This document shows positions 868 through 63,840 of a stretch of 64,000 nt of DNA, in pieces. Location: the IMG/VR virus record IMGVR_UViG_3300035034_002381, positions 1-64,000 of that record. One strand, written 5' to 3'. Source of the DNA: a virus (Duplodnaviria > Heunggongvirae > Uroviricota > Caudoviricetes). How positions within the stretch are numbered: the first letter of the stretch is position 1; the number at the start of each line of letters is the position of its first letter. Made by a program: the position numbers and the translations under genes. Below the pieces are notes generated by a model, which saw only the letters and a list, made by a program, of their open reading frames with translations, was not told the origin of the DNA and ran no database searches.

Positions 868-940
868 GGGGCTGTAGCAAAGTTGGTCTATGCGGTGGAT
901 TGAAGATCCATGGATGTCGGTTCGATCCCGACCGGTCTCA
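868..940 (+). tRNA. tRNA-Phe (GAA)
   Basis: Acceptor ggggctg/cggtctc (three G-U pairs), anticodon stem gtgga/tccat with loop ttgaaga, T-arm gtcggttcgatcccgac. Confidence 0.6.
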
Positions 941-1020
941 CAAGATTAAAAAATAGAAATCATGAAAAAAACATTAGATTATCTTTAAAACCTAAAGATA
1001 TGAGCAATGGCATTGAACAT

Positions 1021-9116: not shown

Positions 9117-9150
9117 AAACCCTGTCTATTTAATTAGACAGGGTTTTTTT
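9117..9150 (+). terminator. Rho-independent terminator (aaccctgtcta-tttaatt-agacagggtt plus TTTTTTT)
   Basis: Hairpin plus T-run preceding the third tRNA cluster. Confidence 0.75.
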
Positions 9151-9155
9151 ATTTG

Positions 9156-9245
9156 GAAGATAAAGCAGCTGCATTGGAGCGGCGACTAGCCTTGAAAACT
9201 AGGTCTCGGAGAAATCTGGGTGGGGTTCGAGTCCTCTGTCTTCCT
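9156..9245 (+). tRNA. Class II tRNA-Ser (TGA)
   Basis: Acceptor ggaagat/gtcttcc, anticodon loop cttgaaa, long variable arm, T-loop ttcgagt; 90 nt. Confidence 0.55.
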
Positions 9246-9276: not shown

Positions 9277-9362
9277 AGAGGATGCGGTAATGGTGGTTAT
9301 TACAGTATCTTGGAAAGGTACCGATCGTTTATTCGGTCAGGGTTCGACTCCCTCATCCTCTG
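9277..9362 (+). tRNA. Class II tRNA-Ser (GGA)
   Basis: Acceptor agaggatg/catcctct, anticodon stem gtatc/ggtac with loop ttggaaa, variable arm ccgatcgtttattcggtc, T-arm agggttcgactccct. Confidence 0.65.
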
Positions 9363-9493
9363 CTATGTTCTTCTTAGAATAACTAATTTATGTAAATGTG
9401 AGTTCGAATCTCATCAAATGCTTTTAGCATCTGTAGCCAAATGGTTAGGCAATATACTTGAAATATATAACAAACGATTAGAAGAACAACATG

Positions 9494-9566
9494 CTTCCAT
9501 AGTATAAAGGTTCATTATTCCTGTTTTGTAATCAGGCGATATCGGTTCGATTCCGATTGGGAGCTC
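9494..9566 (+). tRNA. tRNA-Thr (TGT)
   Basis: Acceptor gcttcca/tgggagc, anticodon loop tttgtaa, T-arm atcggttcgattccgat. Confidence 0.6.
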
Positions 9567-9714
9567 AATGAATATGATGTTTATTTAGATCCTAAAAATG
9601 ATTATCTTATTGGTATAGATAGTAAAAAAATTGAAAAGGTCGAAGAATTGTATAATGTGCGTAATAATAGACAAGGATAATTTATCTTGGAATGATATTC
9701 AAAATAAAATAAAT

Positions 9715-9795
9715 GTTTCAGTGGTGGAATGGTAGACACGTCGGTCTTAGGAACCGATGCCGAAAGGCGTGAGAGTTCGAGTCTCTCCTGGAATA
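9715..9795 (+). tRNA. Class II tRNA-Leu (TAG), canonical architecture
   Basis: D-arm gtg-gaatggtaga-cac, anticodon stem tcggt/accga with loop cttagga, variable arm gccgaaaggc, T-arm gagagttcgagtctctc. Confidence 0.65.
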
Positions 9796-9796
9796 C

Positions 9797-9876
9797 ACTC
9801 TGGTGGATTAGGTAAATTGGTACAGCTAAACGGCTTAGACCCGTATCCCTTCTGGGTTCGAATCCCAGTCAGAGTA
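9797..9876 (+). tRNA. Atypical 80-nt tRNA-like gene, family member 1. The anticodon-like hairpin is acgg-cttagac-ccgt (TAG). There is no variable arm, and a 7-nt insertion separates the acceptor from the 3-bp D-stem
   Basis: Acceptor actctgg/tcagagt, conserved block tggattaggtaaattggtacagctaa, T-arm ctgggttcgaatcccag. Confidence 0.5.
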
Positions 9877-9881
9877 CAAAT

Positions 9882-9961
9882 GCTCCTGTGGTTTATGTAA
9901 ATTGGCACAGCTAAGCGGCTTAAACCCGCAACCTTTATGGGTTCGAGTCCCATCAGGAGTA
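9882..9961 (+). tRNA. Atypical 80-nt tRNA-like gene, family member 2; anticodon-like hairpin gcgg-cttaaac-ccgc (TAA)
   Basis: Acceptor gctcctg/caggagt, conserved block tggtttatgtaaattggcacagctaa, T-arm atgggttcgagtcccat. Confidence 0.5.
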
Positions 9962-10056
9962 CAAAAGTTTATCAACGTCTTGAGTCAAGTTGGATGATGA
10001 CAAAAAGGCTAACGGCAGAAGTGAATCCATCGCACTGTGTTACATAAACTTTATCT

Positions 10057-10129
10057 GGCCAGGATTCTCAATTGGACGGGACTCTGTCTTCTAAACAGAT
10101 GTTTGTGGGTTCGAATCCCATCTTGGTCT
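10057..10129 (+). tRNA. tRNA-Arg (TCT)
   Basis: Acceptor ggccagg/cttggtc, anticodon stem tctgt/acaga with loop cttctaa, T-arm gtgggttcgaatcccat. Confidence 0.6.
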
Positions 10130-10135
10130 CTAAAC

Positions 10136-10209
10136 GCAGGTATACCTAAGTGGTTTAAAGGAGCGGATTGCAAACCCGTTATTCATTGGTTCGAATCCAA
10201 TTACCTGCT
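10136..10209 (+). tRNA. tRNA-Cys (GCA)
   Basis: Perfect acceptor gcaggta/tacctgc, anticodon loop ttgcaaa, T-arm attggttcgaatccaat. Confidence 0.7.
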
Positions 10210-10214
10210 CACTT

Positions 10215-10297
10215 GGAAGGTAACTTGATGGTGATAGAGGTAGTTTGCTAAACTACTGGCCGTTTACTCGGTCGAGGTTCGATTCCTCTGCCTTCCG
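10215..10297 (+). tRNA. Class II tRNA-Ser (GCT)
   Basis: Acceptor ggaaggt/gccttcc, anticodon stem gtagt/actac with loop ttgctaa, variable arm ggccgtttactcggtc, T-arm gaggttcgattcctc. Confidence 0.7.
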
Positions 10298-10301
10298 CTA
10301 T

Positions 10302-10379
10302 GCTCCTGTGGATTATGTAAAAGCACAGCTAACACCTTGAGGAGGTGATCCTTTGTGGGTTCGAGTCCCGCCAGGAGTA
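10302..10379 (+). tRNA. Atypical tRNA-like gene, family member 3; anticodon-like hairpin cacc-ttgagga-ggtg (GAG)
   Basis: Acceptor gctcctg/caggagt, conserved block tggattatgtaaaagcacagctaa, T-arm gtgggttcgagtcccgc. Confidence 0.5.
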
Positions 10380-10404
10380 CAAAGAAGCAAAGAGTTAGTT
10401 AGGT

Positions 10405-10479
10405 TAGACTGGCTTGTTATGTGGTGAAATTGGTAAACGCGAGCGCTTTGGTGCTTAGTAACCTTAACACTTCTTATTT
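10405..10479 (+). ncRNA. Partial tRNA-like element: a Leu-type D-arm gtg-gtgaaattggtaaac-gc plus a hairpin, with no T-arm. It abuts the next tRNA
   Basis: Shares its D-arm sequence with the 10788-10899 element. Confidence 0.3.
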
Positions 10480-10553
10480 GCTGAGTTAGTATAGTCGGTT
10501 TATTACGATACCCTGGTACGGTATTAACACCAGTTCGATTCTGGTACTCAGCT
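10480..10553 (+). tRNA. tRNA-Thr (GGT)
   Basis: Perfect acceptor gctgagt/actcagc, anticodon stem atacc/ggtat with loop ctggtac, T-arm accagttcgattctggt. Confidence 0.7.
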
Positions 10554-10565
10554 CATGAAAAATAT

Positions 10566-10645
10566 GCCTCTGTGGATTATGTAAATTGGCACAGCTAACG
10601 GTTTCAAACTCCGATCTTTTATGGGTTCGAATCCCATCAGAGGCA
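10566..10645 (+). tRNA. Atypical tRNA-like gene, family member 4; anticodon-like hairpin cgg(t)-ttcaaac-(t)ccg (CAA)
   Basis: Perfect acceptor gcctctg/cagaggc, conserved block tggattatgtaaattggcacagctaa, T-arm atgggttcgaatcccat. Confidence 0.5.
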
Positions 10646-10661
10646 CAAGTAGGAGAAATTT

Positions 10662-10746
10662 AGTCCAGTGGCGAAACAGGTATACGCACAAGATTTAAGC
10701 TCTTGCTTCCATTGAGGAATTGCGGGTTCGATTCCCGCCTGGATTA
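10662..10746 (+). tRNA. Class II tRNA-Leu (TAA), canonical architecture
   Basis: Acceptor agtccag/ctggatt, D-arm gcg-aaacaggtata-cgc, anticodon stem caaga/tcttg with loop tttaagc, variable arm ttccattgaggaa, T-arm gcgggttcgattcccgc. Confidence 0.65.
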
Positions 10747-10787
10747 CTAAGTTAGTACGGGTTCGATCCCCGTCTTGGCTACTAAAT

Positions 10788-10899
10788 TTGACCGTGGTGA
10801 AATTGGTAAACACACCCTTAAATCAGGGAGTATGAGAATATGTACTTGAAGCTGACGCAGAACATCATACATATGTAGGTTCGAATCCTATCGGTCGAA
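10788..10899 (+). ncRNA. 112-nt tRNA-like RNA with a roughly 45-nt extra stem-loop (atatgta...tacatat) inserted before the T-arm
   Basis: Acceptor ttgaccg/cggtcga, Leu-type D-arm gtg-aaattggtaaa-cac, anticodon-like ccc-ttaaatca-ggg, T-arm gtaggttcgaatcctat. Confidence 0.4.
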
Positions 10900-10904
10900 C
10901 AAAT

Positions 10905-10978
<74 letters not shown>

Positions 10979-11325
10979 CTATCTAAAACTTTATTCAATT
11001 TCCATAATATAATGTGTAACTAAACTTTATAGAAATGGAAAAAATACTAATGTCTGAAATTTTGACTTATGACAACTTCGACGACGGTTTACCTGAAGAA
11101 TATGAATTTGTCGATTCTGAACAAACATATTTTGATGGTGAAAAAGGCTTTGTTAATATCGAAGCTATTATCAGAAGAGAATCAGACTCACAATTTTTAA
11201 AGTAAAATACACCGATTATGGAAAAGGTGAAAATGATCTTATGGAAAGTGTGGGCGAACCTGTAACTCAAAAATCCAAAACAATTTTCTACTATGTAACT
11301 CAAAAATCCAAAACAATTTTCTACT

Positions 11326-17119: not shown

Positions 17120-19195
17120 ATGAACAAAGATTCTAATGTATTATTAATACTTGAAAGATCTTCATCAAATCTAGATGTTAACAAGGAATCGGGTGATTAT
17201 ATTCTCGAAGGTATTTTTGCTCAATTTGGAGTTGAAAACAATAACAAAAGGATTTATGAGGAAAAAGAGTATTTACCACATCTCGAATACTTAAAAAAGA
17301 AAATTTCAGAAAATCGATTGATGGGAGAACTTGATCACCCAGAAAAATTTGAAATTGCTTTAGACAAAGTATCTCACGTAATTGAGAATATTGAATATGA
17401 TCAAGCAAAACGCCAGATTAAAGGGCGTGTACGTATTTTAGATACGCCATCCGGAAAAATCGCAAAGAGTCTAATCGACTCTAATATTCCTATTAGTATT
17501 TCATCACGAGCTGCTGGTTCTGTGAGTGAAAATAAAACTGTTTCTATTAAGAGAATTTTTACTTATGATTTAGTTGCTGATCCAGGTTTTGAAGATGCAC
17601 AATTATCAAGAATAAATGAATCATTTGGTTTAGACAACGAAAATAATCTACAAATTTTTGATGCTTCTAGATGGGACAACAATTTTTCGTTTGATGAAAA
17701 AGAAAAAGAAAAGCCTGTTGAGGCAATAAAAGAAAATAAAGAAAATACTACAGATATGAAAGAATTTGTGACAATTGAAAGCATGGAACGCTATTCATTA
17801 ATGGTCAAAGAAGAAATTGCTAAAATCAATACACGATTAGAAACTCTGAATGAGAGTAATGCTAATTCTGATGAAACAGCAGAACTTAGAAAAACCGTTG
17901 ATAATTTAGTAGGGTATGTTAATGAAATGGCTACCGAAATTAATCAAAACAGAGAATACATGTCATATACTGCTGAAATGCTTGACGAAAGTATTTCTTG
18001 GTCAGAAAATGAGATCGGTAATCAAGTTACTAAATTAATTGAATATACTGAATCTGAATTGGCTGTTCATCTTGATGGTTTAATTGAACACAATAACTAT
18101 CTTGCAGAAAAATTAAACACGACTATTGGATACGTTAATGAAGAATTGGCTCCAATTTTAGATGAGTCTATTAATCACAATGATTATTTAGTTGAACAAA
18201 TTGCTAATAACCGAAAATATACTGAGTATCTTGCTGAAAATGCTGTAGACTCAACAAATTTTGATTCGTTAGTAGAATATACTGAACATGTATATGAAAA
18301 TGCTGCTGGAAAATTTGAAGGTAAAATTAATGAATCTGCAACTGCTGAGGATGTAATTAAAAAACATAAACTTAAAACACATCACGATGTTGCTAAGTTT
18401 ATAGGAGATTTTTATGATTTACCAGATACAATTAAAGGATCTACCGATAAATTCACATTTAAAGACGTTGAGGACAACGTAATTAAAGTTGATGGTAAAG
18501 CAGGAACAGTAGACGGTAAAAAATTATCTCTGGCGGGATTGGTTGATCTTATGTCAGGTGGTGATTTTGATCTTCTTATTGAAAATCAAGCTAATAAAAT
18601 TAACGAAAATAAAAACGTATCAACAGATATTGAAAATCGATACATGAGTATCAATGAAAAAATTGACGCGGCTCTTGAGCAGATCAAGAAAACAAAGACT
18701 GAAGAAATCACAGAGTCTAAACGTCATCCTTTCACCAAACTACTCAACGAAAGTAATAGAGCTGCTTTCACTGAGTTAGGAAAAACCGAAAAAGAAAAGG
18801 TTTCAAAAGCTCTAAATGAAAACGGTATTTTAAGTACTGTAAAACTTAACGAAAAATTCACTTCATTGTTAGAAGGTAATTTCGAAATTGTTGAAGAGCC
18901 TAAATGGTTATCTGAAGCACCAGACAAGTATAAAGCTATTTTTGAAAGTTTGAATGAGGAAACTCAGGATAAACTTAGAGCTCAAGCTTCATGGTACGAA
19001 GGTAAACTTAAATCTCCTTATCAAATCGAAAATTTCTGGGCAACTAGAGGACTGAACGAAGACGTTGAGTTGAAGAATCTGAAAGACGATGCTGATGTAA
19101 AACTTATTAAAGAAAGTAATGATAGATCTAAAGATCTGGGTTATTCTTCTGATCGAGTTGCTGCAATTAAACAAGGTCTGAAAAGATTCAAATAA
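17120..19195 (+). CDS. Probable prohead protease fused to a scaffolding-type coiled-coil domain
   Basis: Sits immediately upstream of the major capsid gene. The N-terminal roughly 200 aa contain EGIFAQFGVENNNKRIYEEKEY...GELDHPE (T4 gp21 / S77-like). The rest is an acidic, heptad-rich segment typical of scaffold proteins. Confidence 0.5.
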   Translation: MNKDSNVLLILERSSSNLDVNKESGDYILEGIFAQFGVENNNKRIYEEKEYLPHLEYLKKKISENRLMGELDHPEKFEIALDKVSHVIENIEYDQAKRQIKGRVRILDTPSGKIAKSLIDSNIPISISSRAAGSVSENKTVSIKRIFTYDLVADPGFEDAQLSRINESFGLDNENNLQIFDASRWDNNFSFDEKEKEKPVEAIKENKENTTDMKEFVTIESMERYSLMVKEEIAKINTRLETLNESNANSDETAELRKTVDNLVGYVNEMATEINQNREYMSYTAEMLDESISWSENEIGNQVTKLIEYTESELAVHLDGLIEHNNYLAEKLNTTIGYVNEELAPILDESINHNDYLVEQIANNRKYTEYLAENAVDSTNFDSLVEYTEHVYENAAGKFEGKINESATAEDVIKKHKLKTHHDVAKFIGDFYDLPDTIKGSTDKFTFKDVEDNVIKVDGKAGTVDGKKLSLAGLVDLMSGGDFDLLIENQANKINENKNVSTDIENRYMSINEKIDAALEQIKKTKTEEITESKRHPFTKLLNESNRAAFTELGKTEKEKVSKALNENGILSTVKLNEKFTSLLEGNFEIVEEPKWLSEAPDKYKAIFESLNEETQDKLRAQASWYEGKLKSPYQIENFWATRGLNEDVELKNLKDDADVKLIKESNDRSKDLGYSSDRVAAIKQGLKRFK

Positions 19196-34122: not shown

Positions 34123-35022
34123 ATGATATCAGAAGAAAAATTTCCCGATGGACAAATTAATTTTAAAGCAAATACAGAGGACATCAAAAGTCTTTTAACA
34201 CCACCATACATTTTATCAAATGATAATGCGATAAATTTTACAATTGATCTAAGTAACTGGGATAAATTTCAAACTTTGTTGGCAGCCAATGCAAAATTTA
34301 GACAAACGCACAAACAAATTAATTTACATATAGGTTATCTTTTTGGTTCAAGAAGTGACCGTAAATTTGAACATGACGGAATTAACTATTTTCGTGATGT
34401 AATTGCTAAAACAATCAATGATCAAAATTTCAACAAAGTTACTGTATTTGATCCACACTCACTTGCAGTAGAAAATGCAATTAATAATTGTGAGAGTATT
34501 CATCCGTTCCCACAAATCAATCACCATTTTTTAAATATGGTTGGAAATTTAGATTTATCTGAATATGAAATTGTTATAGCGTCTCCAGACCTTGGGGCAT
34601 ACAAAAAAGTCTTTGGAATTTTTGCTAAATTTTCCGAAAAATATCCAAACATACATTTTAATTTTATTTCCGCAAATAAAATTCGTAGTCTGTCTGGTGA
34701 TATTTCTATGGTTTTAAATCCACCATATAAAGAATTTGACAAATCAAAAAAACGAATTCTATATTTAATTGATGATATTTGTGATGGCGGGAGGACCTTT
34801 ATAGAATTTGCTAAACTTCTTAACGAAGATTTTGAGAAAAAGTATCTATATGTATCACATGGAATATTTTCTAAAGGTCTTGATCCATTATTAGAACATT
34901 TCGATAAAATTTTTACTACAAACAGTATTTCGAATACTTATATCAAATATCTAACAAACGATAATACCATTCTAAATTCTAACATTCTTTTTACCACATT
35001 TATTTCGCAACGCAATGAATAA
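34123..35022 (+). CDS. Ribose-phosphate pyrophosphokinase (PRPP synthetase)-like enzyme, or alternatively an Adps-type ADP-ribose pyrophosphokinase
   Basis: PRTase-type loop YLIDDICDGGRTF at the position of the Prs DDMIDTGGT, in a 299-aa protein. Confidence 0.55.
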   Translation: MISEEKFPDGQINFKANTEDIKSLLTPPYILSNDNAINFTIDLSNWDKFQTLLAANAKFRQTHKQINLHIGYLFGSRSDRKFEHDGINYFRDVIAKTINDQNFNKVTVFDPHSLAVENAINNCESIHPFPQINHHFLNMVGNLDLSEYEIVIASPDLGAYKKVFGIFAKFSEKYPNIHFNFISANKIRSLSGDISMVLNPPYKEFDKSKKRILYLIDDICDGGRTFIEFAKLLNEDFEKKYLYVSHGIFSKGLDPLLEHFDKIFTTNSISNTYIKYLTNDNTILNSNILFTTFISQRNE

Positions 35023-35989
35023 AAAAGCAACAATTCTTCTTGGACTGCCATTAGCAGGCAAGTCGACTTATATAGGAAACAGAATAGAATATGGTGATTG
35101 GTCAGACACAGGATTAGTTTTAGTATCTGCAGATGATCTTAAAGAAAATCATGAAGATTATGATCCCGACCATGCGTATAAAATTCATGAGTGGTCAGTT
35201 AAAGAGGCCGAAAGGCAAATGAAAGAATACTCAGAATTTGGATCAAAACACATTATCATGGACGGTGGTGGCATTAACAATTCATATACTCGTAGAATTA
35301 TGTCTGATCTACGTTTAAAAGGTTATGAAATTGAACTTATACATATTAAAACGCCGCTCCAAGTTTGTCTTCTTAGAAATGAGAAGCGGGTCCGCAAAGT
35401 TCCAGTGCATGATATTGTAACAAAGGCAGCTCGAGAACGTAAACAATATGAGATACTTAAAGATGTTGTAGATAGTGTTACTATAGTTCCATATTTCACA
35501 AACAAACATATTTTTATAGATATGGATGGAGTTATTGCGGGACAGTCTGTCTTGCCAGAATTTGAAGGAAAAATAGATTTTGTTAATAGCGAAATTTTTA
35601 CTATTTTACCACCTGTTCATCAAGTTATTGATAAACTTAATAGTCTTGATTCTGAAAAACATACACTTTATATTTTATCAGCAACACCGAATTCATATTC
35701 GTATACTGAAAAACATGATTGGTTAGATAAACATTTTAACATACCAAGAGAACGCAGATTTTTTGTAAATGCTGGAAAGCATAAAGCAGAAATGTTAGAA
35801 AATCTAAGAATAAAACTCAAAACTGATAAACGTGATGTCACTCTGATTGAAGATACGCACTCGACACTTAAAGATGTTAGAGACCTTAGAATGAATCCAA
35901 TACATGTATCTGAATTTTTATCAAATGATTTTTTGCGAGATGAAGAATTATATGACTATAAATATTACGAAAACCCAAATAATAAATAA
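35015..35989 (+). CDS. Two-domain P-loop kinase plus HAD phosphatase (T4 Pnkp-like polynucleotide 5'-kinase/3'-phosphatase architecture)
   Basis: Walker A GLPLAGKST at the N-terminus; DxDG motif IFIDMDGVIAG at about residue 168, as in T4 Pnkp. Confidence 0.5.
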   Translation: MNKKATILLGLPLAGKSTYIGNRIEYGDWSDTGLVLVSADDLKENHEDYDPDHAYKIHEWSVKEAERQMKEYSEFGSKHIIMDGGGINNSYTRRIMSDLRLKGYEIELIHIKTPLQVCLLRNEKRVRKVPVHDIVTKAARERKQYEILKDVVDSVTIVPYFTNKHIFIDMDGVIAGQSVLPEFEGKIDFVNSEIFTILPPVHQVIDKLNSLDSEKHTLYILSATPNSYSYTEKHDWLDKHFNIPRERRFFVNAGKHKAEMLENLRIKLKTDKRDVTLIEDTHSTLKDVRDLRMNPIHVSEFLSNDFLRDEELYDYKYYENPNNK

Positions 35990-62634: not shown

Positions 62635-63840
62635 ATGAATAACATTACTGAACAAGGAGATCCAGATTTTGACTGGGCAACATATGAATCGGAAGATTTT
62701 AAAGGTTATAACAAGGATATCCAAAAAATCTATCCAGAGTCTAGAGTTTTATGTAGAAAAGACTATGCTTTAGATTTATACGAGTTAATGCTGGATTATC
62801 CAGTCAAAATTAAAGATGTCCAAGATGGAGATATAGTACAAATAACCTCTATTGAACCTGTCGAGGAATACACAGTATTAGTTACGACATATAATGGATT
62901 ATCTTTACGAGTAGATTTAACTAAAGAAAAAAGGTTCTGCGGGTTTTACGATTTAACACCCGAAGATTTATGGGAAGTTTTACAATCACCAGAAAATCAA
63001 ACAGAAATATTGGAGTCTGAACCAGTGTATATCGAAATTAAGAATACATCACAAGGGATAATTGGAAGCTTATCTAAAGCTCGAGATCATAAAGTTCAAC
63101 ATGATTTTCTTGAAGAAATTAAAAGCCCTTCTAGTGCATATCAAGCAAAGGTTGTTGGATTAAATAAGGGTGGATTTTTTGTAAAGGTTCAAGGTATTGA
63201 CGCATTTCTACCAGGTGGATTAGCTGCGGCAAATAAAATTACGAATTTTGAATCTTATTTAGGTAAAGAAATACCTGTAATGATTGAAGATTACTTGAAG
63301 GATAATGATACATTCATTGTTAGTAACAAAAAATATTTAGATCATATTTTACCAGGTAAAATTGCAAATTTATCCTTAGATAAGGAATATAAAGGTACAG
63401 TTACTGGTACTGCAAAGTTTGGTATTTTTATTGAATTTGATGAAATTTTTACTGGACTGATCCATGTTTCTAAAATGATTAAAGAAACCAAAGAACTTTT
63501 TAAGAACAGGGAAATTAAAGCAGGAGATGAAATGTATTTCTGGATCAAAGAAATCACTGATACTAACAAGATTATTTTGTCTGAAGAAAATCCTATGCTT
63601 AAAAAGATTGCGTTTGATCAATTCAAAGAAAGTAGTGTAGGAATGATTAAAGAAGGTAAAGTTATCTCAAACAAACCCTTTGGGACATTAGTCAAAATGG
63701 AAAAAGATATCATAGGATTAATTTCTAAAAAGGAATTAAAAACAAAAAATATTTTTCCTGAAGTAGGTGGAACTATTATGGTGACTGTGGATGATATCAA
63801 GAAAAATAAAATTTATCTTTCATTACCTAATGAAGCCTAA
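62635..63840 (+). CDS. rpsA: Ribosomal protein bS1 homolog (three to four S1 RNA-binding domains)
   Basis: Domain 2 VVGLNKGGFFVKVQGIDAFLPGGLAA matches E. coli S1 [26 protein letters not shown]. Domain 3 AKFGIFIEFDEIFTGLIHVSKM matches the S1 FGAFV...GLLHISE. Domain 1 has GDIVQITSIEPVEEYTVLV. Shorter (401 aa) than cellular S1. Confidence 0.7.
   Translation: MNNITEQGDPDFDWATYESEDFKGYNKDIQKIYPESRVLCRKDYALDLYELMLDYPVKIKDVQDGDIVQITSIEPVEEYTVLVTTYNGLSLRVDLTKEKRFCGFYDLTPEDLWEVLQSPENQTEILESEPVYIEIKNTSQGIIGSLSKARDHKVQHDFLEEIKSPSSAYQAKVVGLNKGGFFVKVQGIDAFLPGGLAAANKITNFESYLGKEIPVMIEDYLKDNDTFIVSNKKYLDHILPGKIANLSLDKEYKGTVTGTAKFGIFIEFDEIFTGLIHVSKMIKETKELFKNREIKAGDEMYFWIKEITDTNKIILSEENPMLKKIAFDQFKESSVGMIKEGKVISNKPFGTLVKMEKDIIGLISKKELKTKNIFPEVGGTIMVTVDDIKKNKIYLSLPNEA

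Follow-up and report, generated by a model that had tools for sequence, protein, structure and literature searches.

A conserved tRNA-like RNA with an enlarged variable arm in the tRNA array of a T4-like phage

Introduction

Clusters of tRNA genes in phages are commonly interpreted as toolkits for codon usage or anti-defence, and those parts of them that tRNA finders miss are taken as debris. In T4, the cluster also holds two stable RNA genes that do not encode tRNAs, rnaC and rnaD, whose products were described as 'RNA species I and II' (PMC2330249) and are called species 1 and species 2 here. Enlarged variable arms are found in tRNA-Sec and in allo-tRNAs, some of them phage-borne (PMC5389517, PMC7609411). 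The canonical anticodon arm consists of a 5-bp stem and a 7-nt loop (PMC7609411), and tRNAs that depart from it, such as frameshift suppressors with 8-nt anticodon loops and tRNAs with 4-bp anticodon stems, are functional despite the non-standard arm (PMC13092985).

Here, we describe an element from a T4-like phage of low GC content, for which metagenomes are the only source. The window, by which we mean the whole 64,000-nt stretch of DNA that was analysed, contains a tRNA array with a 112-nt element that ARAGORN misses and that is constrained like the neighbouring tRNAs, and whose short anticodon arm and 41-nt variable arm argue against ordinary decoding. The element is conserved and covaries in relatives, has a tRNA-like architecture, and carries a non-canonical anticodon arm. 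We hold, with moderate confidence, that it is an RNA gene that descends from a class II (leucine-type) tRNA and is kept by selection, and that its product is a non-decoding RNA built on a tRNA scaffold, excised by tRNA-processing enzymes, with conserved loops as its working surface. An earlier note on this DNA had taken the element for a real but non-standard tRNA-like RNA, and this general view holds up; none of its three specific proposals (an unusual suppressor or Sec-like tRNA, a pre-tRNA with an atypical intron, or a Ro60-type ligand) is supported by the evidence set out below.

Location and anatomy of the element

The array lies downstream of a strong terminator (9117-9146), and no credible terminator was found inside it, the sole other plus-strand match falling on the anticodon arm of a tRNA-like gene (10302-10379). 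The gene for tRNA-Arg(tct) begins 5 nt downstream of the element, and tRNA debris is present in the array at 10405-10479 and 10748-10787. At the first of these the earlier note had seen a partial copy of the D arm of the element, and an 18-nt exact match does occur there, at 10421-10438. The array, the element and its parts are listed here:

9277..10979, plus strand: tRNA array containing the element (ARAGORN and Rfam calls)

10788..10899, plus strand: whole tRNA-like RNA gene, 112 nt, CCA not encoded (Rfam RF00005 at 35.7 bits, and homologues)

10788..10794, plus strand: 5' strand of the acceptor stem, ttgaccg, pairing with 10892-10898; 6 of 7 pairs show double compensatory changes in the divergent relative L144

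10797..10813, plus strand: Leu-type D arm with a 3-bp stem gtg/cac and the loop aaattggtaaa containing G18G19 (covariation, conserved loop)

10815..10828, plus strand: anticodon-like hairpin with a 4-bp stem ccct/aggg and the 6-nt loop taaatc; in L144 one C-G pair is replaced by U-A, with 100% conservation of the loop

10830..10870, plus strand: extra arm at the position of the variable region, with a 6-bp stem gtatga/tcatac (10830-35/10865-70) and a 29-nt loop (10836-10864); two double compensatory changes in the stem

10871..10874, plus strand: 4-nt linker atat from the extra arm to the T stem, variable among relatives

10875..10891, plus strand: T arm gtagg-ttcgaat-cctat, with an invariant loop and, in the stem, one double and two single compensatory changes

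10892..10899, plus strand: 3' strand of the acceptor stem, cggtcga, and the discriminator A; A73 unchanged in L144

The tRNA-like RNA that the earlier note placed at these positions is real: its acceptor stem, Leu-type D arm and T arm are present, and the Rfam tRNA model scores it above the gathering threshold of 29 bits with an E value of 1e-5, a result obtained with sensitive filters only. That alignment leaves a 43-nt insertion in the variable region. A default Rfam scan of the whole window did not report the element, a default ARAGORN run did not call it, and its single-sequence fold energy is unremarkable (z = -0.71). The canonical tRNA features found in it, namely the 7-bp acceptor stem (ttgaccg/cggtcga, including one U-G pair), the G18G19 of the D arm and the TTCRA T loop, have been kept via compensatory changes. 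Since the 7-bp acceptor stem, A73, U8, the GG of the D loop and the TTCGAAT T loop are all retained, the RNA should fold into an L shape and be handled by tRNA enzymes. The conserved A73 and the intact Leu-type core would fit a charged tRNA equally well. The variable region measures 46 nt, including the 41-nt arm, vs about 16 nt in the canonical tRNA-Leu(taa) of the same array.

Conservation and covariation in relatives

Homologues of the element were found at L143 4804-4913, L145 9217-9326 and L144 1561-1672, the last of which is likewise 112 nt long and belongs to a divergent relative in which the neighbouring protein is 59% identical and the major capsid protein 85%. A covariance model of the element (R1) gives 134-139 bits for the window, L143, L144 and L145, and at most 54 bits for everything else. 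The earlier note had named covariation in relatives as a check on its structure, and the outcome is positive: in an alignment of the three distinct sequences, which represent only two lineages and draw their covariation largely from L144, all 25 base pairs are retained, 11 of them with compensatory double changes, and 0 of 500 shuffles did as well. When the 3' partners were slid by 1-3 columns as a control, only 31-54% of the positions paired, and RNAalifold independently gives the identical structure.

The pattern of change between the window and L144 differs sharply from part to part. The acceptor stem is only 7% identical (GCAGTTA/TAACTGC in L144, so that 13 of its 14 bases differ), and the discriminator A is retained there despite this replacement, A73 being conserved in all four copies. 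In the D stem a U-A pair has become C-G, the D loop is 91% identical, and the extra-arm stem is 67% identical. The linker reads AACT in L144 and is 2 nt shorter in L143 and L145, where the T stem is re-formed as ATAGG/CCTAT. The anticodon-like loop and the T loop are 100% identical and the extra-arm loop 86% (25/29). Overall, the identity of the element is 70.5%, compared with 57-70% for five canonical tRNA orthologues, which makes the element as constrained as the real tRNAs around it. On this comparative evidence, the element is more than a chance occurrence.

These figures bear directly on the idea of a tRNA-Leu pseudogene in decay that has picked up a neutral insertion. Obvious tRNA debris does lie in the same array, ARAGORN makes no call, and all three differences between the window and its near-identical relatives sit in the insert or the linker; both substituted sites, however, also vary in L144 or in the L281 cassette described below, and the 2-nt deletion spares the T stem. 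The loops are highly conserved, and 11 compensatory double changes keep five helices in place where neutral spacers can no longer be aligned. The compensatory changes in L144 make decay very unlikely, to the point that we find this explanation scarcely credible.

The family is rare. Signature scans of IMG/VR and of GTDB genomes turned up no member, and neither did the loci obtained from four more distant phage relatives. The signature TGGTAAAY-N6-TTAAATCA-N42-62-GGTTCRA gave chance matches only in both collections, as did the motif GAAGCTNACGCAGAA in IMG/VR, among the at least 120 matches listed. No close relatives were found in INPHARED by megablast, and blastn returned tRNA-level matches only; the match to LR745206 proved to be the T arm of an ordinary class II tRNA. 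Synteny in IMG/VR, followed through the major capsid protein, led to fifteen loci, none of them with tRNAs, and followed through the 311-aa neighbour led to nothing. More distant relatives, reached through homologues of the capsid protein or the 647-aa protein (L267-L271, L278-L279 and L285-L288), had no homologue of the element above the level of a generic tRNA-Leu in the DNA available for all but two of the contigs.

The extra arm and the sequence it displays

The earlier note was right that the extra arm goes far beyond the length of a class II variable arm and wrong about how it closes. The helix it proposed, atatgta/tacatat (10838-44/10868-74), is complementary in the window, but 4 of 20 sequence-by-pair cells are broken in relatives and none is compensated. 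The helix backed by covariation is gtatga/tcatac, which becomes GTATAG/CTATAC in L144 and is also contained in the single-sequence minimum-free-energy fold of the element.

The 5' strand of this arm and its loop (10830-10864) match a cassette in an unrelated phage (L280-L282), where 31 of the 35 bases recur in a non-tRNA context, that of an early promoter or leader. The matching sequence there lies 17 bp after a TTGACA hexamer, and about 40 nt separate it from the start codon of the ORF that heads a divergently oriented ORF cluster; the upstream part of the cassette is repeated before another ORF, and the hexamer GAATAT is invariant across all four contexts in which the sequence occurs. The recurrence of the arm outside a tRNA in another phage suggests that it is a sequence-specific module. 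The same match could instead indicate a function at the DNA level, such as that of a promoter.

Spelled out, the latter explanation holds that the extra-arm sequence acts as DNA, forming an embedded promoter or regulatory cassette for the downstream tRNA-Arg and ORFs, in which TGaGAATAT would supply an extended -10-like element followed by an initial transcribed region, while the tRNA-like fold merely extrudes and tolerates the cassette. The placement of the matching sequence between TTGACA and a start codon, the repetition of the upstream part before another ORF, as would be expected of a promoter, and the invariant GAATAT favour this view. The element itself, however, contains no -35 hexamer, and a two-hexamer scan found no site there; the TG of the extended -10 is lost in L144, where the base covaries with its RNA partner (G-C to A-U). 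Conservation spans all 29 nt of the loop, well past the needs of a -10 element, the motif is single-copy in 64 kb and is therefore not a reused promoter of this phage, and the upkeep of every tRNA stem is left unexplained. We consider a purely DNA-level role quite unlikely.

Other sources and partners for the arm were sought along several lines. No paralogue of the insert, or repeat from which it could derive, was found in the window, and Rfam has no known RNA family matching the extra arm at E values up to 10. By inspection, a small ORF in the arm is not conserved (MRICT* in the window vs MD* in L144). A duplex scan of the window and L144 for antisense targets of the 29-nt loop returned chance-level hits only, none of them at orthologous sites, and neither similarity nor complementarity to E. 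coli 16S and 23S rRNA rose above shuffled controls; the 9-mer AGCUAACGC of the element is presumably also present in 16S rRNA. When the loop was compared with the enlarged D region found in a co-resident family of odd tRNA-Leu-like genes, the likeness was unconvincing, with only AGCTAAC and a weak TATG block in common.

The anticodon-like arm and the question of decoding

The hairpin with the loop ttaaatca that the earlier note had described is present in the window. Its arm pairs only in a 4-bp/6-nt or a 3-bp/8-nt register, the 8-nt loop arising if the closing U-A pair opens, and at 14 nt it is 3 nt shorter than the canonical 17. A leucine anticodon (NAG or YAA) is absent from a standard loop position, the loop being UAAAUC or UUAAAUCA, and reading UAA would take a register in which the arm fails to pair; with a loop of either 6 or 8 nt, no register gives the arrangement U33-NNN-R37. 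When the extra arm is shortened, ARAGORN calls an 'anticodon' of 2 or 4 bases. Under the standard code the ORFs of the window run long without interruption, and no candidate recoding site was seen among them. Taken together, the loop of 6 or 8 nt, the missing U33-NNN-R37 and the uninterrupted ORFs speak against the suppressor tRNA that had been suggested earlier.

In a broader form of this idea, the element would function as an aminoacylated tRNA, probably one that carries leucine, and would decode in an unusual manner via the expanded 8-nt loop, through a four-base anticodon or frameshift reading or through near-cognate or stop-codon reading. Bacterial LeuRS recognises A73 and core tertiary features, not the anticodon, and the Leu-type D arm and tRNA core of the element are intact, with a discriminator A that has stayed unchanged while the whole acceptor stem was replaced. 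The variable arm of a class II tRNA faces away from the ribosome, and its enlargement may be tolerated; the invariance of the anticodon-like loop equals that of the anticodon loops of true tRNA orthologues. Yet in no register does the loop have 7 nt together with U33 and a purine at position 37, and the stem has only 3-4 bp. An equal 4-bp/6-nt arm with a different loop, GUAAMA, in the second family presented below suggests a structural feature and not a decoding one. The ORFs are uninterrupted, with no candidate recoding site seen, and the array already contains canonical tRNA-Leu(TAA) and tRNA-Leu(TAG) as well as a tRNA-like gene that ARAGORN calls Leu(GAG). We therefore judge a decoding role unlikely.

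The suggestion of a Sec-like tRNA is not supported: the acceptor and T stems are 7/5 and not 8/5 or 9/4, and a 7-nt loop with a UCA anticodon is missing. Competition among related Rfam models retains the generic tRNA match for the element and not tRNA-Sec.

The earlier note had also suggested an atypical intron. In intron mode, ARAGORN arrives at a single solution for the window, L143 and L144, a tRNA-Phe(GAA) from which 25 nt (10821-10845) would be removed, and a G-to-A change at 10854 turns a U-G pair of the model stem into U-A. The resulting anticodon stem, however, has a mismatch, C-C in the window and U-C in L144, and U33 is replaced by A in L144. Both covarying helices would be cut, as the change from C30/G39 to U30/A39 and two double changes in the extra arm pair 'intron' with 'exon' bases. 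We know of no precedent for a splice point at the stem-loop junction (33/34), and a canonical tRNA-Phe(GAA) is already encoded elsewhere in the window (868-941). No bulge-helix-bulge motif was seen when the two proposed junctions were read by eye, no Rfam intron family matches the element, and a group I intron would need a far longer insert. We regard a spliced precursor, as proposed in the earlier note, as highly improbable.

The third proposal, a Y-RNA-like ligand of a Ro60/Rsr protein, starts from the fact that YrlA-type Y RNAs carry a tRNA-like module, and a weak YrlA (RF02553) match does cover 10846-10958. That match reaches 21.8 bits against a gathering threshold of 69 and is stitched together from the T arm of the element and the D arm of the next tRNA. 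The topology also differs, the ends of the tRNA forming an acceptor stem and not a Ro-binding helix, and no TROVE-domain protein was found among the 40 window ORFs scanned. We give this reading almost no credence.

A proposed pathway for a non-decoding RNA

Returning to a non-decoding RNA on a tRNA scaffold, we propose the following steps from gene to function:

(i) The element would be co-transcribed with the tRNA array.

(ii) RNase P would free the 5' end of the RNA, while the 3' end would be trimmed and receive its CCA by addition.

(iii) A stable RNA of about 115 nt would then accumulate.

(iv) This RNA would take no part in codon decoding.

(v) The tRNA body would serve as a scaffold for processing and stability, with two parts rebuilt, namely a short anticodon arm (4 bp and the invariant UAAAUC) and the 41-nt variable arm.

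(vi) The functional surface would consist of the two invariant loops, chiefly the 29-nt loop of the extra arm, which may serve to bind, recruit or titrate a partner, be it protein or RNA, that is probably a host factor.

A second family and a possible class of RNAs

Seven IMG/VR contigs (L031, L069 and L136-L140) carry a second family with the same architecture and an unrelated sequence, of which we know no earlier description. Its extra arm of about 45 nt has a covarying closing stem, with 97.8% of positions paired and 5 double changes. The two families share an identical Leu-type D arm, the 4-bp stem with a 6-nt loop, the T arm and the discriminator A, and differ in the loop, which reads GUAAMA in the second family, and in the extra arm, which there runs GAAAAUAAUCU...CGAUAARAGUA with an inner hairpin. 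The R1 model gives the second family only 44-46 bits, equal to a generic tRNA-Leu, and the resemblance reflects either convergence or a very old divergence. A third example of the long-armed architecture lies at L278 17952-18054.

We suggest that a class could be delimited by a Leu-type D arm, a 4-bp stem with a 6-nt loop, a covarying extra arm of at least 40 nt, and an intact T arm and acceptor stem, all of which are found in both the window element and the second family. As a tentative extension that we regard as possible but doubtful, phages with large tRNA arrays may encode 'armed' tRNA-like RNAs that are excised, stabilised and non-decoding and that display a conserved single-stranded module on an enlarged variable arm, by which a host factor would be titrated or recruited in the course of infection. 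The displayed module is also present in the early leader or promoter region of an unrelated phage.

The element and the second family suggest that phages may have turned the tRNA fold to another use, as a stable carrier that processes itself and serves other RNA functions, and tRNA arrays merit covariance-model searches that allow large insertions in the variable arm.

Comparison with known systems

Among described RNAs, the class II tRNA-Leu (RF00005) shares with the element the 7-bp acceptor stem, A73, U8, the 3-bp D stem with the loop AAATTGGTAAA and the T arm, and the D-arm 20-mer of the element is common among phage tRNA-Leu genes, being identical in many tRNA-Leu(UAA) genes. In contrast to these tRNAs, the element has a 14-nt anticodon arm, no readable anticodon and a 46-nt variable region, and the sequence of its extra-arm loop is conserved, as is not usual for variable arms. 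The tRNA-Sec and allo-tRNAs combine their enlarged variable arms with acceptor/T stems of 8/5, 9/4, 8/4 or 9/3 and normal 7-nt anticodon loops, whereas the element has 7/5 stems and an abnormal loop. Frameshift-suppressor tRNAs and tRNAs with 4-bp anticodon stems depart from the standard in a single feature and retain U33 and an anticodon that can be read, whereas in the element both stem and loop are abnormal and a large arm has been added.

A parallel in setting is that of species 1 (rnaC) and species 2 (rnaD) of T4, which are stable non-tRNA RNAs encoded, like the element, in a T4-type tRNA cluster beside tRNA-Arg. The 3' end of rnaC forms a T arm (CCGGGTTCGAATCCCGG) and an acceptor-like stem. 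The two T4 RNAs differ from the element in their lengths of 139 and 119 nt and in being without a full D arm and cloverleaf, and homology was not found, R1 giving 20 bits on rnaC and no match on rnaD. To our knowledge, the T4 species 1 and 2 RNAs have no known function, and the idea of a carrier RNA, if true, would offer a testable angle on it. The element resembles species 1 and 2 in its T4-type tRNA-cluster setting and in its tRNA-like 3' domain, and on the pathway proposed above it would resemble them in stability as well.

A tRNA-like RNA with a large extra arm

The 112-nt gene at 10788-10899 encodes a conserved and structured RNA derived from a tRNA, in which the anticodon arm is non-canonical and a large extra arm is conserved in sequence. 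Read from the sequence, its parts are, from start to end:

Start of 10788-10899 (+): acceptor stem 5' strand ttgaccg, then tg
Part 2 (+): D arm gtg-aaattggtaaa-cac, then a
Part 3 (+): anticodon-like hairpin ccct-taaatc-aggg, then a
Part 4 (+): extra arm gtatga / 29-nt loop / tcatac
Between extra arm and T arm (+): linker atat
After the linker (+): T arm gtagg-ttcgaat-cctat
3' end (+): acceptor 3' strand cggtcga and discriminator a

ARAGORN and the default Rfam scan both missed the element; a sensitive Rfam scan reports it as a tRNA at 35.7 bits (threshold 29), aligning the acceptor, D and T arms, with a poorly aligned anticodon arm and a 43-nt insertion. The long-armed tRNA-like RNA with intact acceptor, Leu-type D and T arms that the earlier note described is real. 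The helix it drew to close the extra arm, atatgta/tacatat, is wrong: it leaves four broken sequence-by-pair cells and gains no compensatory change, and gtatga pairs with tcatac instead, as also in the single-sequence fold, the stability of which is not unusual (z = -0.71).

Covariation and sequence constraint

Two near-identical relatives, L143 (JGI Ga0307983_1002557, from one metagenome pattern scan) and L145 (ENA ERZ27316648, via protein look-up), are 93-100% identical to the window across shared segments and 98.7% around the element, in which the sole differences are T-to-G at 10843, G-to-A at 10854 and the loss of 2 nt where linker and T stem meet, a deletion that re-forms the T stem as ATAGG/CCTAT. 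The decisive relative for comparison is the divergent L144 (Logan SRR17165150), in which the 311-aa protein encoded beside the element is 59% identical and the capsid protein 85%, and which holds a 112-nt homologue at 1561-1672 (Rfam tRNA model, 38.9 bits).

When covariation was checked in these relatives, as the first reading had proposed, all 25 pairs of the five helices formed in every sequence of a three-sequence alignment, with double compensatory changes in 11 of them (six of seven acceptor pairs, two in the extra arm, and one each in the D, anticodon-like and T stems). None of 500 shuffles matched these pairing and covariation values, a control in which the 3' partners were slid by 1-3 columns gave only 31-54% pairing, and RNAalifold independently returned the same structure. 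Between the window and L144, stem identity is 7% in the acceptor, 67% in the extra arm and 60% in the T arm; loop identity is 91% (D), 100% (T), 100% (anticodon-like) and 86% (29-nt extra-arm loop). The whole element is 70.5% identical, and five canonical tRNA orthologues 57-70%. Covariation and region-by-region identity together show that the element is a maintained RNA gene and not debris, and that its two unusual loops are under sequence constraint; we regard it as very probable that this is a maintained RNA folded as described here.

Alternative identities

A canonical anticodon arm has a 7-nt loop on a stem of 5 bp (PMC7609411). In the anticodon-like arm only two arrangements pair: 4 bp closing the 6-nt loop UAAAUC, and 3 bp closing a loop of 8 nt. 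Its sole 7-nt-loop register has three weak pairs and an A at position 33, and a canonical decoder was rejected on these grounds.

None of the three specific interpretations offered earlier is supported. For all three sequences, ARAGORN in intron mode proposes an intron-containing pre-tRNA, a tRNA-Phe(gaa) interrupted by an intron of 25 nt; the model, however, leaves a C-C or U-C mismatch in the anticodon stem, loses U33 to A in L144 and splits covarying bases, and we know of no precedent for its splice point. In a deletion scan, several 25-nt deletions that contradict one another each led to a canonical call, and otherwise the calls had 2- or 4-base anticodons. The acceptor/T arrangement is 7/5, which does not support a Sec-like tRNA. 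As for a Ro60-type ligand or Y RNA, YrlA reached 21.8 bits vs 69 in a match stitched across two genes, and the 40 window ORFs scanned include no TROVE protein.

A probable sequence module in the extra arm

A loop-motif scan matched three IMG/VR contigs of an unrelated ~42-kb phage that encodes a terminase and a head-tail adaptor (PHROG family name), in a promoter/leader-like cassette:

L280 1597-1707 (-): cassette
L281 12077-12211: cassette
L282 10915-11049 and 11733-11762: cassette

Extra arm and cassette share 31 of 35 bases (GTATGAGAATATGTACTTGAAGCTGACGCAGAACA vs ATATGAGAATATGTACTTGAAGCTAACGAAAAACA); the 18 specified bases of the scan would match about twice by chance, and the extension beyond them is estimated at ~1e-5 by chance. 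No tRNA-like context was found around the match. The arm therefore appears to carry a sequence module conserved across three very different contexts.

The module can be read as a DNA-level promoter element: in the cassette it lies 17 bp downstream of a TTGACA hexamer and ~40 nt upstream of the first-ORF start codon of a divergently oriented ORF cluster, and a second ORF is preceded by a repeat of the cassette's upstream half, which consists of the palindrome TGTTTG...CAAACA and then GATAAATATA. The element, however, is without a -35 hexamer, and a promoter scan reports no site there; L144 has lost the TG that would make an extended -10, and there the base covaries with its RNA partner; conservation extends over the entire loop; and the motif is present once in 64 kb. 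The module can also be read as a site to which a common (host) factor would bind.

Genomic setting

The phage contig (ENA ERZ27315366 k141_21517; window GC low, ~32%) has genes for a Gp23-type major capsid protein and a prohead protease together with NAD-salvage and glycosyltransferase genes, and nucleotide comparison found no close relative among deposited phages. Also encoded are a protein that joins a P-loop kinase to an NT5C/HAD-like domain (35015-35989), an architecture resembling polynucleotide kinase-phosphatase (RNA repair), and a protein of 401 aa that has three S1 RNA-binding domains (62635-63840). The window has three tRNA arrays and 21 tRNAs called by ARAGORN. The element sits in the third array (9277-10979), which follows a strong terminator (9117-9146) and contains no credible terminator, the sole other + strand match being the anticodon arm of a tRNA-like gene.

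Paralogous tRNA-Leu-like genes (window 9797-9876, 9880-9961, 10302-10379 and 10566-10645; L144 2-81, 885-965 and 1351-1430) have anticodons TAG, TAA and GAG on 4-bp anticodon stems, a short variable loop and a D region that is both enlarged and conserved (TGGWTTATGTAAATTGGCACAGCTAAN); one has a 9-nt loop TTTCAAACT on a stem that covaries in L144, and of the window's four genes ARAGORN calls only one. Their enlarged D region weakly resembles the extra-arm loop. The element's D-arm 20-mer is widespread among phage tRNA-Leu genes, and the partial copy noticed earlier in 10405-10479 is exact over 18 nt (10421-10438). At that locus a tRNA-like gene is present as its 5' half, a D arm and a hairpin, without a T arm; its full-length relative, L144 1006-1092, has a 6-nt 'anticodon' loop and a 10-bp outer helix GTAAAAGAGT/ACTCTTTTAC. 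Two orphan fragments resemble a T arm with a 3' acceptor strand: 10748-10787, immediately upstream of the element, identical in L143/L145 and absent from L144, and 9160-9245, just downstream of the terminator.

The arrays of L143/L145 and L144 differ by presence/absence insertions. In L143 (3484-4677) and L145 (7897-9090), 1.2 kb encoding two ORFs of 176 and 121 aa lies between the positions that correspond to window 10646 and 10662. In L144 a 179-aa ORF (1714-2253) separates the element from tRNA-Arg; by eye, it has NUMOD-like and PD-(D/E)XK-like motifs of the sort found in homing endonucleases.

Distribution and similar designs

The covariance model R1 scores the four copies of the element at 134-139 bits and all others at 54 bits or less, the generic tRNA-Leu level (T4 tRNA-Leu, 47 bits). 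Signature scans of IMG/VR and GTDB genomes found no real homologue, and the element is absent from the more distant relatives of the phage that were examined.

Seven IMG/VR contigs hold a different family with the same layout and an identical Leu-type D arm:

L031 1084-1192: second-family member
L069: second-family member
L136: second-family member
L137 8725-8835: second-family member
L138 3501-3610: second-family member
L139: second-family member
L140 429-540: second-family member

In these, a 4-bp stem bears the 6-nt loop GUAAMA. The extra arm, ~45 nt long and structured, carries the conserved motifs GAAAAUAAUCU and CGAUAARAGUA, and the RACC/GGUY stem that closes it covaries; in the alignment of the family 97.8% of positions are paired and there are five double changes. 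Contig L100 has three tandem copies related to this family.

In a related phage, L278 (NCBI GCA_033813855.1 JAPZCB010000025.1; at least 44 tRNAs in 22 kb), the long tRNA-like element at 17952-18054 combines a 4-bp stem and an 8-nt loop with an extra arm of 9 bp; ARAGORN missed it and another at 9741-9871. Among the tRNAs of this phage ARAGORN labels a tRNA(UUA) 'Stop' and makes several tRNA-??? calls with 2-base anticodons. HNH, GIY-YIG and DUF559 endonuclease genes are interspersed. Ten further IMG/VR contigs (L005, L018, L023, L034, L035, L036, L041, L079, L107 and L114) encode class II-like tRNAs in which a Leu-type D arm goes with a GTT anticodon (loop CTGTTNA); the GCCA at their 3' end is encoded, the variable arm is 28 nt long in some, and a long arm with an Asn anticodon is unusual.

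Proposed maturation and comparison with known RNAs

From the anatomy of the element and established knowledge of tRNA maturation, we infer that it would be co-transcribed within the array transcript and excised by RNase P together with 3'-end trimming and the addition of CCA; CCA is not encoded, and the downstream tRNA begins 5 nt past the element. It would then persist as a tRNA-shaped, non-decoding RNA, owing its processing and stability to the tRNA body and its function to the invariant loops. We put a non-decoding scaffold RNA at about an even chance, and our confidence in any specific partner is low. Duplex scans for an RNA partner gave only chance-level matches, and the E. coli rRNAs have no significant similarity or complementarity to the element.

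We class the element with the tRNA-like stable RNAs of phage tRNA clusters. Its nearest precedent, without sequence homology, is the pair of T4 stable RNAs called species 1 and 2, which lie in the T4 tRNA cluster beside tRNA-Arg; species 1 likewise has a T arm, and an acceptor-like stem.
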